Assembly (NCBI RefSeq): GCF_011045215.1
Contig: NZ_CP049201.1
Length of the DNA: 64,000 nt
Origin: Escherichia coli
GTDB taxonomy: Bacteria > Pseudomonadota > Gammaproteobacteria > Enterobacterales > Enterobacteriaceae
Strand: one strand, 5' to 3'
Every line of letters starts with the position of its first letter. The first letter of the stretch is position 1. Shown piece after piece: positions 6,296-12,855 of the stretch. The notes under the pieces were generated by a model, which was not told the origin of the DNA, made no database searches, and worked only from the letters and a program-made list of their open reading frames with translations. A program made the translations under genes and the position numbers.

Positions 6296-6310
6296 GGAAG
6301 GGAAACTTGA

Positions 6311-6371
6311 CTTCATACTGTGATGTCATACTATTGATGTCATAAAGTGAAGTCATAAGGACATGTCATGA
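6311..6371 (+). repeat. Five tandem direct repeats of a TGTCATA-like core at 13-14 bp phase, upstream of the HicA-like gene
   Basis: Cores cttcatac, tgtcatac, tgtcataa, agtcataa, tgtcatga start at 6311, 6324, 6338, 6351 and 6364. Confidence 0.7.
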
Positions 6372-6453
6372 GAACCAAGGTACAGGCTTTACGGAAGAAA
6401 CAAAAAAATACATTGGATCAAATATTTAAAATTCCTGTTCCTCAAGGGATCAA

Positions 6454-6642
6454 GTGTCTGATATAGAGTCACTGGTTAAAGCATTAGGCGGAGAAATTAA
6501 GGAAGGAAGAGGTTCGCGTTGTAAGTTCATACTAAATATGAGCGTTGCGTGTTTCCATCGGCCTCATCCGTCGCCAGATACCGATAACGGCGCTGTAGAA
6601 AGCGTGCGTGACTGGTTACTAAGTATAGGGGTAAAACCATGA
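6454..6642 (+). CDS. HicA-like toxin candidate (small mRNA-interferase-like protein)
   Basis: 62-aa ORF with GTG start; resembles HicA-family toxins (GxGS...KF...HRPHP). 4-bp ATGA overlap with the downstream HicB-like gene. Start codon uncertain. Confidence 0.5.
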   Translation: MSDIESLVKALGGEIKEGRGSRCKFILNMSVACFHRPHPSPDTDNGAVESVRDWLLSIGVKP

Positions 6643-6998
6643 TCAAACTGAAGACGCCAAACTCTATGGAGATTGCCGGGCAGCCTGCTGTTATCACTTA
6701 CGTGCCAGAACTGAATGCATTTCGTGGCAAATTCCTGGGCTTGTCAGGTTATTGTGATTTTGTCTCTGACAGCATTCAGGGGCTGCAAAAAGAAGGGGAA
6801 CTTTCCCTGCTAGAGTATCTTGAGGATTGTAAAGCTGCGGGTATTGAGCCGTATGCGCGTACAGAAAAGATTAAGACCTTTACGTTACGCTATCCAGAAT
6901 CGCTGAGTGAACGCCTTAATAATGCGGCTGCGCAGCAACAAGTCTCTGTTAATACCTATATTATTGAAACACTGAATGAGCGTTTGAATCATTTATAA
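6639..6998 (+). CDS. HicB-like antitoxin candidate with C-terminal ribbon-helix-helix-type DNA-binding tail
   Basis: 119-aa ORF; C-terminal segment (PESLSERLNNAAAQQQVSVNTYIIETL) is typical of HicB-family antitoxin DNA-binding ends; translationally coupled to the upstream small ORF. Confidence 0.55.
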   Translation: MIKLKTPNSMEIAGQPAVITYVPELNAFRGKFLGLSGYCDFVSDSIQGLQKEGELSLLEYLEDCKAAGIEPYARTEKIKTFTLRYPESLSERLNNAAAQQQVSVNTYIIETLNERLNHL

Positions 6999-7047
6999 CT
7001 TATAGCGGCCCAACAATTTCTGTTGCGCCGCTATATTTTTGTGGCTC

Positions 7048-7908
7048 TTAAGATGCCTTTCTAACCAACCGATGCCCCTCATTCATCATCAGGATTTTGC
7101 TATACACATCTTCCTCGACGGCGTTTTTTGCTGATGCCATGACTCGTGCCAGATTCGCCTCGTTGTGATTATTCACATACGCTTTGCCGACGGCGGTGAT
7201 AAATGCTTTGCGCAGATCGCTGGCGATATTTACTTTAGCGACGCGATAATTAACAAAGCTGCGTAATATCTCCGGGGCGATACCGGAGCCGCCGTGAATA
7301 ACCAACGGCACCGGACAGACTTCGGCAATGCGCTTCAGCAGGGGGATATCGATACGCGGTATATCGTCCAGGCCATGAACGTTGCCAATAGAAACTGCCA
7401 GCATGTCGCAACCGGTACGCTCGACAAAGGTCTTCACCTTTTCCGGTTCCGTTTTGCAATCGGCTTCGCTGACATGATCATCTTCTTTGCCGAGAATCGC
7501 CCCCAGCTCCGCTTCAACCGGTACACCATAGGATTTACAGAAATCGACAGCTTCCTGGGTGAAAGCGATATTCTCTTCAAAAGAGAATGCGGCACCGTCA
7601 ATCATGACCGAGGTAAAGCCCGCGCGCACTGCCTGTTTCACATCCTCCTGAGTTTTCCCGTGATCCAGATGAAGACTGACCGGAACATCCATTTTATCGG
7701 CGTGACGTTTCACGATTTCATAAATGTAATCGTATCCCGAGAGTTGTGCATTGGTTGGCGCAATCTGAATGAAGTTGGGTAATCCCGAACGCTCAATAGC
7801 GTTTAAAATTGAAATTGTCGTCTCCAGATTGGTGGTATTAAATGCGCCCGCTAATACCCGTTTTTCCTGAATGCGGTCGAGCAGTATCCGTCCATTAACT
7901 AATGGCAT
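7048..7908 (-). CDS. Class II ketose-bisphosphate aldolase (GatY/KbaY/FbaA family)
   Basis: 286-aa ORF with class II aldolase layout (HLDHG metal-binding motif, GNVHG, IHGGSG). Confidence 0.8.
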   Translation of the reverse strand: MPLVNGRILLDRIQEKRVLAGAFNTTNLETTISILNAIERSGLPNFIQIAPTNAQLSGYDYIYEIVKRHADKMDVPVSLHLDHGKTQEDVKQAVRAGFTSVMIDGAAFSFEENIAFTQEAVDFCKSYGVPVEAELGAILGKEDDHVSEADCKTEPEKVKTFVERTGCDMLAVSIGNVHGLDDIPRIDIPLLKRIAEVCPVPLVIHGGSGIAPEILRSFVNYRVAKVNIASDLRKAFITAVGKAYVNNHNEANLARVMASAKNAVEEDVYSKILMMNEGHRLVRKAS

Positions 7909-7939
7909 ATTGAAAACCTCATCTTTTAATATCAGTTAA

Positions 7940-8209
7940 TTATTCAGCTTCACCGAAGCGGTCGCGAAATAAGTCGGTGAGAGTCTGTATGGCCTCGTTT
8001 TCATCATCACCGTCGCAGCGTATTTCCACCGTTTTTCCGCCTTTTATTCCGGCGCGCATAATATTCATCATGCTGGTGGCATTAATATCATTACCCTCAT
8101 AGTGCAGCGTCACTTTACAGCTATATTTTTTGGCGGCTTTCGCCAGACAGGCCGCCGGACGTGCATGCAGGCCAGTACTGTTTCTGACCTCCACGGTTTT
8201 ATTCAACAT
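7940..8209 (-). CDS. HPr-family phosphocarrier protein (operon-dedicated HPr paralog)
   Basis: 89-aa ORF; active-site His context (STGLHARPA) near the N-terminus, typical HPr length. Confidence 0.8.
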   Translation of the reverse strand: MLNKTVEVRNSTGLHARPAACLAKAAKKYSCKVTLHYEGNDINATSMMNIMRAGIKGGKTVEIRCDGDDENEAIQTLTDLFRDRFGEAE

Positions 8210-11134: not shown

Positions 11135-11416
11135 TTAATTTTTAAGGATCGAAACAATTTGCGCCAGTACTTTCTCTTCGCCAATACCGGTAATAATCGG
11201 CAAGCCGTTAACTACCGGGACGTCGAGTTCATAAGGCACTTTAGTCGTTGAGACTACCAGTGCTACGCCATCAGTATTTCCAGGTAAAGAGGCAACGTTG
11301 GTTTGGGAATAATTGACGTTAAGACCGTGCTCTTTACAATATTCCATGACTTTTTCTGTTACCGCCGTGGATGTGGCAATACCCGTGGCGCAGACAAATA
11401 AAATGGTTTGACTCAT
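11135..11416 (-). CDS. PTS EIIB component, GatB-type
   Basis: 93-aa ORF with N-terminal phospho-Cys motif (FVCATGIATS). Confidence 0.8.
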   Translation of the reverse strand: MSQTILFVCATGIATSTAVTEKVMEYCKEHGLNVNYSQTNVASLPGNTDGVALVVSTTKVPYELDVPVVNGLPIITGIGEEKVLAQIVSILKN

Positions 11417-11886
11417 ATTTCACCTCGTTCTTTCATTTTGTTTAAGATTACTGTGTGTATTTCTGTTGTTTCCATCGCAAGCAGGGCTTGCATAAAGGGC
11501 GTATCCTGAATCATTTCCATAATCCAGCCCAGGGCATTTAATTGTTTATTACTTTCGCTTAAGGCGAGCAAAAAAATCACCCTGACAGGTACGGGGTCAG
11601 GATCGCCGCCCATATCGGCAAACTCTACCGATTCCGGCAGGATGCCGACGGCAATTGCATTGTGCCTGACATGTTTATGGTCCGTGTGCGGAATAGCGAC
11701 GCACGGTGGTTCGGTAGGCAGCCCCGTTGGGTACGTCGCCTCACGTTTCAGTACGTGATCGGCAAAATCAGGGACGACCAGCTCGGCGGCAACCAACGGT
11801 TGCGCTAACTGACGGATGATCTGTTCAACGCTTAACCCTGCCGGAAGTCGTTGAATATAATTTTCCTGAAAATGTATGCCTTGCAT
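11413..11886 (-). CDS. PTS EIIA component (type 2; mannitol/fructose/galactitol family)
   Basis: 157-aa ORF; active-site His context (AIPHTD); ATGA overlap with the EIIB gene. Confidence 0.8.
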   Translation of the reverse strand: MQGIHFQENYIQRLPAGLSVEQIIRQLAQPLVAAELVVPDFADHVLKREATYPTGLPTEPPCVAIPHTDHKHVRHNAIAVGILPESVEFADMGGDPDPVPVRVIFLLALSESNKQLNALGWIMEMIQDTPFMQALLAMETTEIHTVILNKMKERGEI

Positions 11887-11910
11887 TTTATTCCTCTTAA
11901 AAAAGTGTAC

Positions 11911-12666
11911 TTAACTCACTTCCCGCCGTTGCAGTACGGTGCCAAGATAATATTTATTTCCTTTTAACCAGACGTTGCCAAACTCAATGGGTAATCCTCG
12001 GGAGAAAAAGACTAACTGCTCCAGATGCAAAACGGGTGCGTCTTCACTGATATCTAAAAAATGACCACGTTCATTACCAATTAATCGCGCGGCATAGCGA
12101 CTTTCCGAGTAACGAATTTTTCTTTGCGACAAACTTTCTATTGTTGGAAATAAATTGTGTTGATTAAAATCGATTTCCGCAATACCAGGGCATAGCTCAA
12201 TATTGATACGGTTCTCTATCAGCATCGCTTTTTCATCACCAATTGAGCGTAAGCGTTCAAGGTAAAGAATATCCTGACCGGGCGTTATTCTTAATTTCTC
12301 TGCCACATAACGATTAGCCGGTTCAATCCGTGACGTAATAACTTCAGTGGTAAAATGTATTTTCTGGCTTTCCAGCGATTCCGCGAATGACAATAATCCT
12401 TCACCTAACGGATATGCCACGTTCTCTTTTTTGACAAATGTTCCCTTACCCTGGACCTGTATTAACACGCCTTCTTTTACCAGTTGGGCGACCGCTTTTT
12501 TAACGGTTCCCCGACTCACTTCCAGCATATCCATAATCTGGTATTCCGAAGGAATGCGATCGTCTTCCACCAGATCTCCGGTATAAATACTTTCTCTTAT
12601 CCACTCCACCACTTGTTGATAGAGCGGTATTTGTGACGACTTACTTAATGATTTCATGGCGCGCAC
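11911..12666 (-). CDS. GntR/HutC-family transcriptional regulator (winged-helix plus UTRA effector domain)
   Basis: 251-aa ORF; N-terminal GntR-type HTH (SEYQIMDMLEVSRGTVKKAVAQLVKEGVL) and UTRA-like C-terminal domain; first gene of the PTS operon. Confidence 0.8.
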   Translation of the reverse strand: MRAMKSLSKSSQIPLYQQVVEWIRESIYTGDLVEDDRIPSEYQIMDMLEVSRGTVKKAVAQLVKEGVLIQVQGKGTFVKKENVAYPLGEGLLSFAESLESQKIHFTTEVITSRIEPANRYVAEKLRITPGQDILYLERLRSIGDEKAMLIENRINIELCPGIAEIDFNQHNLFPTIESLSQRKIRYSESRYAARLIGNERGHFLDISEDAPVLHLEQLVFFSRGLPIEFGNVWLKGNKYYLGTVLQRREVS

Positions 12667-12680
12667 CTGAACATTTACAG

Positions 12681-12704
12681 TTGTCTATGGACAATCATGG
12701 ACAA
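12681..12704 (-). promoter_or_regulatory. Candidate operator of the GntR-family regulator
   Basis: TTGTC-tatg-GACAA inverted repeat plus a third GGACAA half-site (ttgtctatggacaatcatggacaa), 15-38 bp upstream of the regulator start. Confidence 0.45.
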
Positions 12705-12821
12705 CTTCAAGCGTATAGTAGGTGAACGGGAGAAAAAGAGGATCGAAGCGTCTCACATTTTGAGGGACCAAATCGTGATCAAAAAAATGTGACGTGAGTC
12801 GATATTTGTCAGAAGTTTACT

Positions 12822-12845
12822 GCGCCGTAAGGAAATAACGGCGCG
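12822..12845 (-). terminator. Hairpin just downstream of nikR (candidate terminator)
   Basis: Inverted repeat CGCCGT / ACGGCG with 9-nt loop immediately after the nikR stop; weak U-tract. Confidence 0.35.
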
Positions 12846-12855
12846 TTGGTAGGTG

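Follow-up and report, generated by a model that had tools for sequence, protein, structure and literature searches.

Gene content of the yhhJ–nikR interval

The stretch of DNA analysed here is 64,000 nt of Escherichia coli contig NZ_CP049201.1 (referred to below as the window), and this work concerns the interval between its core genes yhhJ and nikR. In the open reading frame (ORF) listing of the window this interval, positions 6296–12855, is exactly the space between the stop codons of the two genes. Scans against Pfam and NCBIfam placed hicA and hicB on the + strand and a seven-gene operon on the − strand, and the O157:H7 RefSeq annotation has the same nine genes at this site. The HicA/HicB-like pair and the seven-gene phosphotransferase system (PTS) module that the original prediction had read from the sequence are thus borne out by the ORFs, by Pfam and by the O157:H7 RefSeq annotation. 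The features are as follows.

5171–6295, + strand: yhhJ, ABC-2 permease, left core flank; stop codon TAA at 6293–6295
6296–6367, + strand: hicAB upstream region; promoter-like TTGACT-16-TACTAT at 6307–6334 and repeated motifs at 6321–6357
6368–6642, + strand: hicA (HicA_toxin); O157-type start at 6368, remaining ORF 6454–6642
6639–6998, + strand: hicB antitoxin gene (Pfam HicB); 4-bp (ATGA) overlap with hicA
7004–7032, no strand assigned: hairpin AGCGGC...GCCGCT where the hicB and aldolase genes converge
7048–7908, − strand: class II ketose-(bis)phosphate aldolase, 286 aa; NCBIfam NF005943 above cutoff
7940–8209, − strand: HPr-family phosphocarrier dedicated to the operon; 11-nt overlap with the kinase gene
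8199–9707, − strand: FGGY-family carbohydrate kinase, 502 aa (Pfam); below every NCBIfam equivalog cutoff
9700–11088, − strand: PTS enzyme IIC (EIIC), Gat family; Pfam EIIC-GAT 308 bits; RefSeq start at ~11058
11135–11416, − strand: PTS EIIB (Pfam PTS_IIB)
11413–11886, − strand: PTS EIIA (Pfam PTS_EIIA_2)
11911–12666, − strand: GntR/HutC-type regulator with UTRA effector domain (Pfam), first gene of the operon
12667–12855, − strand: control region and nikR terminator; palindrome upstream of gntR, hairpin just downstream of nikR
12856–13257, − strand: nikR, right core flank; its stop reads TTA on the + strand at 12856–12858

None of the seven operon ORFs is shortened in comparison with O157 and B2, the operon therefore being intact in the window, and the order of transcription is GntR/UTRA, EIIA, EIIB, EIIC, FGGY kinase, HPr, aldolase. 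The obvious comparison is with gatYZABCD, the E. coli galactitol PTS and catabolic operon (PTS Gat family, TC 4.A.5), whose regulator is the DeoR-type GatR. Both encode Gat-family EIIA, EIIB and EIIC together with a class II aldolase of the GatY/KbaY/FbaA fold, but the window operon has no GatZ partner and no GatD or other dehydrogenase gene, adds an FGGY kinase and its own HPr, and carries a regulator of the GntR/UTRA type. The galactitol-specific models all scored below cutoff (EIIC TIGR00827, 476 versus 542; EIIB NF007643, 60 versus 95; EIIA NF007236, 57 versus 139; GatY, 240 versus 383), and by these profile scores the operon's enzyme II is assigned to the Gat superfamily and is predicted not to be the galactitol system itself. 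The aldolase falls under the GatY and KbaY cutoffs and matches the NF005943 ‘class II aldolase’ equivalog (557 versus 364). In a sequence search of the PDB the nearest entries to the kinase were glycerol kinases, at only ~87 bits, and those nearest to the aldolase were AgaY, fructose-bisphosphate (FBP) aldolases and YdjI (generic class II).

Consensus scans for promoters and terminators gave matches at chance level overall, the promoter-like site of hicA being the only one that is positionally sensible. Upstream of gntR a palindrome, TTGTCTATGGACAA(TCATGGACAA) at 12681–12704, is kept in Citrobacter amalonaticus and is a plausible candidate for the GntR operator. The hairpin just downstream of nikR (GCGCCGT...ACGGCGC) occupies 12822–12844, and the one between hicB and the aldolase gene is likely to be a bidirectional terminator. 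There was no Rfam match in the interval.

The two + strand genes are adjacent HicA- and HicB-domain genes with the toxin first (PF07927, 33.5 bits versus a cutoff of 27; PF05534, 56.7 bits versus a cutoff of 21). HicAB modules act through mRNA cleavage by the toxin, neutralization by the antitoxin and autorepression; going by its domains, the HicA encoded here would be an mRNA-cleaving toxin, and HicB would neutralize it and repress the hicAB promoter. The pair resembles the HicAB type II systems of K-12 and of plasmids in its gene order, its 4-bp overlap, its two Pfam domains, upstream repeats that fit autoregulation and the plasmid location of relatives; it is a different family member from the K-12 hicAB and lies at a different locus. 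The repeated TGATGTCATA / GAAGTCATA motifs upstream of hicA form a putative HicB operator. At 6321–6344 the window has two tandem TGATGTCATA units against one in the IAI1/B1 allele, a 14-nt difference that probably reflects a different copy number of HicB operator repeats. Relative to O157:H7, hicA has lost 1 bp at ~6456 (6446–6466, GGGATCAAGTG-TCTG), which breaks the 91-aa frame and leaves a 62-aa ORF from a GTG at 6454 that spans positions 2–52 of the 58 in the Pfam profile, without the 29-aa N-terminal extension. HicA length varies at the N-terminus (91 aa in O157, 76 aa in the IAI1 annotation, 62 aa here). With a 41-nt probe across the site the deletion was found in 10 of 5,426 genomes, among them PapM-32-1, the closest relative of the window; this disposes of the frameshift both as an artefact and as a common allele, and it is real but rare. 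A relative with 82% amino-acid identity to HicB lies on a Klebsiella pneumoniae plasmid, and for this reason the pair fits the arrival of a small selfish cassette, which would be the only secondary insertion at the site.

Beyond the left flank, window positions 1–1250 have a G+C content of 36–43% and encode the C-terminal part of a DUF4049 (YhiJ/YhiL family) protein (ORF 17–1006), upstream of yhiI.

Structural alleles of the interval across E. coli

The interval was surveyed in 5,426 complete E. coli genomes by megablast of the region, and the resulting coverage classes were resolved by representative annotations and junction-spanning queries; as the collection leans to clinical lineages, its percentages hold for the database and should not be taken for those in nature. 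Five alleles, given here as states A to E, together account for 5,416 genomes.

State A, operon only (yhhJ / spacer containing a repetitive extragenic palindromic (REP) element / aldolase): B2 strains and ST69 (sequence type 69); 1,056 genomes
State B, hicAB and operon (hicB / aldolase): this window, O157:H7 and O55:H7; 580 genomes
State C, hicAB only (hicB / 115-bp filler / nikR): IAI1 and E2348/69; 1,491 genomes
State D, rhsB (rhsB upstream / nikR): K-12; 2,123 genomes
State E, empty (yhhJ / 8 bp / nikR): KKo003; 166 genomes

The junction matches were all chromosomal and nearly all single-copy, and independent totals for the operon (1,637), for hicAB (2,074) and for both (580) agree with the junction counts, so that K-12 and most strains do not have the gene set of the window at this position. 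The variable locus with different cargo in different strains that the original prediction had postulated is therefore a reality: the core flanks are conserved and the contents across strains include at least two that are non-homologous. Comparison with K-12, O157:H7 and other strains gave the breakpoints exactly, all alleles parting ways at the first base past the yhhJ stop and at the nikR stop codon. Each state has one conserved junction sequence, which suggests that each allele arose once.

The placing of rhsB between yhhJ and nikR in K-12, as given in the original prediction, was correct, a K-12-type O16:H48 genome having the order nikR-rhsB-yhhH-pseudogene-yhhI(ISEc1)-yhhJ; K-12-type genomes thus show the rhs element here, with a tip/immunity ORF after the rhs core gene and an H-repeat (ISEc1). 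No rhs, yhhH or ISEc1 sequence was found in the window by ORF inspection, Pfam or similarity search. In the passages of Jackson et al. (2009, PMC2935791) that bear on this locus, rhs locus 9 (rhsB, nikR–yhhJ) is one of 11 rhs positions, and position 9 ‘evolved uniquely in the K12/HS/ATCC8739 lineage’. The chromosomal junction is identical to that studied here, and what these passages infer agrees with rhsB as a derived occupant; they say nothing of the contents of the position in strains lacking rhs, the window has no rhs content, and the rhsB-type junction is now seen in 2,123 of the 5,426 genomes and also outside K-12, for example in a 5.57-Mb clinical isolate. Secondary events are seen among state D genomes. 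In strain SF10 an IS1 lies directly against a truncated ISEc1 and the genes from yhhJ to yhiM are gone, in strain 48956 phage tail and baseplate genes (which we take to be Mu-like) abut an rhs gene truncated on its nikR side, and a frameshifted rhsB was also observed. A further match, in NZ_CP172819.1 (strain BS-04, ~3533299–3533355), is limited to the initial 58 nt of the region upstream of hicA; the feature annotated under it is an ISAs1-family transposase, and this may be another rare rearranged junction allele.

Sliding-window comparison of the window with O157:H7 gave 99–100% identity from ~6200 to ~13400, which takes in the island and nikR, as against 95–98% in yhhJ/rbbA and in nikE–nikC, with nikE and nikD falling to ~95–96%. 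Within the operon, a patch in the EIIC region (9500–10100) is 99.3–100% identical to the B2 allele, O157 being 97.3% over 9800–10099. Strain E2348/69 has B2 flanks (99–100% to another B2 strain) yet carries the state C filler as in the B1 strain IAI1 (2 single-nucleotide polymorphisms in 120 nt). Such mosaics are the signature of allele exchange between lineages by homologous recombination, the crossovers lying in the core genes on either side, and exchange of this kind would explain why no mobility function is visible. The NikR protein is identical (WP_001190062.1) in the representatives of states A, B, D and E and in IAI1 of state C, E2348/69 having a different accession, and nikR DNA differs by up to ~5% among the representatives that share this protein. 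E2348/69 and IAI1 are only 93% identical over a 300-nt stretch, mostly the 3′ part of nikR, an unusually deep divergence beside the variable junction.

Outgroup loci and the history of the junction

One genome per bacterial species was scanned with the kinase protein, and all window genes were then compared by tblastn with the retrieved loci; the peptide-pattern scan finds close relatives only. In Escherichia whittamii the gene order is nikABCDER-gntR-EIIA-EIIB-EIIC-FGGY-HPr-aldolase-yhhJ-rbbA-yhiI, and C. amalonaticus has the same arrangement, with the operon between nikR and yhhJ. The operon adjoins nikR in the cryptic lineage Escherichia sp. MOD1-EC7003 and adjoins hicAB–yhhJ in Escherichia sp. 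E1V33, whose contig begins inside the kinase gene; a match was also present in Escherichia albertii. Nucleotide identity to the window was 94.7–98.3% over the operon versus 94.6–97.1% over the flanks in a B2 strain, 93.5–95.6% versus 91.8–95.3% in E. whittamii, and 71–84% versus 80–86% in C. amalonaticus. As the divergence of the operon tracks that of its flanks at each distance, the operon appears to have co-diverged with its core neighbours since before the Escherichia radiation.

Two of the retrieved loci are of a different character. In MOD1-EC7003 the aldolase gene and REP sequence are followed by yhiM (DUF2776) and by ORFs sized like yhiN and pitA, yhhJ, rbbA and yhiI being unmatched anywhere in the locus, from which it follows that the left flank itself has been deleted there. 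A metagenome-assembled genome (MAG) labelled Citrobacter sp. HRGM_Genome_0066 yielded an 8.8-kb E. coli-like contig with the state A junction (NikR 100% identical at the amino-acid level, genes 94–99% at the nucleotide level), which is probably misbinned or mislabelled.

The original prediction had treated the whole interval as an accessory insertion. That description holds for hicAB and fails for the operon, where the outgroup synteny and the flank-like divergence speak against it. Its observation that no integrase, transposase or tRNA is visible was upheld. No integrase, recombinase or transposase was present among the nine ORFs of the interval, which all have non-mobility Pfam assignments, or in the O157 RefSeq region; a tRNA scan of window positions 1–20000 found none; and a repeat search gave only short, chance-level matches, with no direct or inverted repeats of note and none at the edges of the interval. 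Thus none of the marks of a mobile genomic island was found, whether a mobility gene, association with a tRNA or repeats, or absence from sister species or a divergence discordant with the flanks. Because of the outgroup synteny, the flank-like divergence and the lack of integrase, tRNA and repeats, we put at roughly 80% the probability that the seven-gene operon is the ancestral occupant of the site in Escherichia, syntenic with C. amalonaticus, and that the other alleles are later losses or replacements, or an insertion, spread by recombination. The rhsB, hicAB-only and empty alleles would then be derived losses or replacements, and for an ancestral operon there is no acquisition mechanism within E. 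coli to seek.

One would otherwise suppose that the PTS module and hicAB form a horizontally acquired island, and that within E. coli some unseen mechanism placed it in a junction that was K-12-like or empty. The base composition could be read in this way (G+C is 48.4% in the interval versus 53.3% in the window, and is patchy, with 43% in hicAB, 42% in gntR and 54.5% in the kinase gene), as could the presence of the operon in only 30% of the complete genomes and the differing contexts of the cassette in other Enterobacterales. We nevertheless consider such an island highly improbable: besides the absence of mobility features and the operon divergence that follows the core flanks, the operon occupies the same place, in the same orientation, in E. 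whittamii and C. amalonaticus and adjoins nikR in the cryptic Escherichia, the outgroup loci are not recent imports from E. coli (C. amalonaticus identity being only 71–86%), the rhsB and empty alleles keep edge sequence of the operon-bearing REP allele, and it is the rhs side that the passages cited from PMC2935791 treat as lineage-specific.

The edges of the alleles allow their order of descent to be proposed. The left edge of the operon is of two types, the hicAB cassette (window, O157, IAI1, E1V33) and a ~110-bp REP-containing spacer (B2, ST69, E. whittamii, MOD1-EC7003). In the window the aldolase ends ...EGHRLVRKAS*, resembling ...EGHPLLRQAS* of C. amalonaticus and the 286-aa forms of distant genera, which end alike, while the REP-type allele has a truncated form ending ...EGHRLGK*; this resemblance suggests that the REP spacer overwrote the last codons and that the window keeps the older 3′ end. 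K-12 has kept the REP spacer to mid-REP, after which ISEc1 follows, and this retained part implies descent of state D from state A. In sequence the empty allele is TGA-TTACGGGG-TTA, that is, the first four bases of the REP spacer (TTAC) and a TAA-type nikR stop, and it stands on B2-like flanks (its nikR is 95.5% identical to the window, like that of the B2 representative); together these point to a deletion derivative of state A. State C is the same as state B from the yhhJ stop to the first hairpin arm past hicB (~window 7013), and is followed there by the 115-bp filler.

The most economical history for these junctions would have one hicAB insertion, one REP replacement and the operon lost three times independently, in one case through the rhsB replacement. 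From an ancestral arrangement of yhhJ, a short spacer, the operon with full-length aldolase and nikR, insertion of a ~720-bp hicAB cassette beside the yhhJ stop would give the window/O157:H7 allele, and an independent replacement of the last aldolase codons by the REP-containing spacer would give the B2/D-type allele. The operon would subsequently have been lost from the hicAB allele, leaving the 115-bp filler (IAI1 type), and from the REP allele twice, once by replacement with the rhsB-yhhH-ISEc1 element (K-12 type) and once by a clean deletion that left 8 bp (empty). Each allele would have arisen once and then have spread between phylogroups via crossovers in yhhJ and nik.

The same alleles might instead record a hotspot, an empty ancestral junction that repeatedly and independently captured unrelated cargo (PTS, hicAB, rhsB). 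An empty allele with 8 bp between the stops does exist in 166 genomes, all alleles break exactly at both stop codons, and state D shows secondary events (IS1-associated yhhJ–yhiM loss, phage genes abutting truncated rhs, frameshifted rhsB). However, the 4 nt of REP spacer, the TAA-type nikR stop and the B2-like flanks make the empty allele look like a deletion derivative, the single junction per cargo across hundreds to thousands of genomes speaks for single origins, and in the outgroups the site is filled by the operon rather than empty, so that repeated capture seems to us very unlikely.

Several observations weigh against an ancestral operon with subsequent losses, or limit it. The 115-bp filler of state C has no similarity to any retrieved locus or to the window (the same is true of the 203 bp upstream of rhsB). 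States A, B and E end nikR with TAA, and C and D end it with TGA; two independent losses would not account for a TGA common to C and D unless a stop came with each replacement. The allele counts come from a clinically biased collection and are plain tallies of genomes. The E. albertii evidence is a 1.3-kb contig without context, and Escherichia fergusonii gave no match in the one-genome-per-species kinase scan. Outside Escherichia and C. amalonaticus the surroundings of the cassette are unrelated and show no conserved neighbours, and in Klebsiella the genes after nikR are mgtE-yhiN-pitA, both yhhJ and the operon being absent; this implies that the operon was gained at the site at a deeper level, ‘ancestral’ applying only to Escherichia and C. 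amalonaticus. The Klebsiella pneumoniae locus in full is nikABCDER, an MgtE-family gene, a yhiN-like gene, pitA, uspB and uspA, the yhiI-rbbA-yhhJ cluster being missing together with the operon. In a NikR homologue search the genes past nikR also differed from those of E. coli in Lelliottia and Kosakonia, and a 93%-identical match from that search was discarded as it proved to be only a frameshift-rich E. coli-like assembly.

The Klebsiella arrangement also bears on whether the synteny of C. amalonaticus and Escherichia reflects an ancient lateral transfer of the whole nik-PTS-yhhJ block, in which case the age of the operon at the site is overestimated. Recombination tracts over the island and its flanks have demonstrably been exchanged within E. 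coli, and only one Citrobacter species representative matched. A value of 71–86%, as found for C. amalonaticus over the operon and ~10 kb of flanks, is typical of genus-level divergence, and any such transfer would therefore predate the Escherichia radiation, leaving the polarity within E. coli unchanged; since the scan detects close relatives only, absence from other Citrobacter species is not evidence. We regard a block transfer as quite improbable, and retain the operon as ancestral occupant.

The yhhJ–nikR interval is thus a multi-allelic structural polymorphism, an ordinary recombination-exchanged locus assembled from known kinds of parts; loci of this kind are already largely known, and no new mechanism or kind of element is required. 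Regions of genome plasticity, variable loci exchanged by recombination, are a general concept in E. coli (e.g. Touchon et al. 2009), and the interval resembles them in its alternative cargo between core genes, its lack of mobility genes and its exchange by flank recombination. It would differ from them in that the largest cargo is ancestral, the variation being mostly loss or replacement and not gain.

Predicted function of the operon and its significance

The seven genes behave as a self-contained cassette: all of them occur together in 15 full-length loci, arranged in three different orders; these loci come from three Escherichia lineages, one E. coli-like MAG contig, Citrobacter, Enterobacter, Pantoea, Cedecea, Rahnella and other genera. 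In the 13 non-Escherichia loci no conserved neighbouring enzymes that might hint at the substrate were present. Because the seven genes travel as a unit without conserved neighbours, the cassette should be self-sufficient, and its substrate would then need transport with phosphorylation, one kinase step and one aldol cleavage, which points to a ketose-type sugar. The order FGGY-HPr-aldolase is that of Escherichia and C. amalonaticus, FGGY-aldolase-HPr occurs in Cedecea, Rahnella, Trabulsiella, Phytobacter, Izhakiella and others, and gntR-aldolase-EIIA... occurs in Enterobacter cancerogenus and Pantoea. Amino-acid identity in other genera is very uneven (EIIC 88–93%, GntR 83–90%, FGGY kinase 61–72%, HPr 44–60%), that of the aldolase being 85–90% in the FGGY-aldolase-HPr loci and ~72% in E. 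cancerogenus and Pantoea.

As judged from the domains, the GntR/UTRA repressor would free the operon once its phosphosugar effector appears, the Gat-family EIIA, EIIB and EIIC, fed by the operon's HPr, would import and phosphorylate a ketose-type sugar, and the FGGY kinase and class II aldolase would then yield triose phosphates. In one possible route a second phosphorylation would precede cleavage; in the other the 1-phosphate would be cleaved first and the aldehyde or polyol fragment phosphorylated afterwards. Two points tell against this pathway: it is read from the domains, which would allow the kinase and the aldolase to act in either order, and FGGY kinases are not known to act on phosphosugars.

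The counterparts in EDL933, Z4875–Z4877 and Z4879, are O157:H7 genes missing from K-12 and are annotated as galactitol-like PTS IIA, IIB and IIC and HPr. They are the same genes as in the window, with 99–100% identity across the interval; the window strain is unlike O157:H7 in its hicA frameshift and in the B2-like patch in EIIC. Z4875–77 and Z4879 were induced in bovine digestive contents by RNA-seq (PMC6199705). The searchable literature contains expression data for the operon and no experimental assignment of substrate or pathway; a report on evolved use of D-tagatose (PMC10101011) was set aside as it concerns the fru and aga systems and not this operon.

Taken as a whole, and only tentatively, the locus may hold an uncharacterized PTS-dependent route for a ketose-type sugar (Gat-family enzyme II, its own HPr, an FGGY kinase and a GatZ-independent aldolase) that was present in the Escherichia ancestor, has since disappeared from ~70% of the E. 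coli genomes sequenced, every standard laboratory strain among them, and persists as an old presence/absence polymorphism because the substrate matters only in some gut niches, in line with its induction in bovine digestive contents; the chance that this full account is right seems to us rather below even.

With its five alleles the locus is a clean structural marker for telling major E. coli lineages apart. It also cautions against treating K-12 as the ancestral reference, for here the ‘extra’ genes would be the inherited ones and rhsB the newcomer that displaced a catabolic operon. In O157:H7 and in B2/D extraintestinal strains the operon represents an uncharacterized carbon-source system that laboratory strains do not have, and it could contribute to niche-specific fitness.

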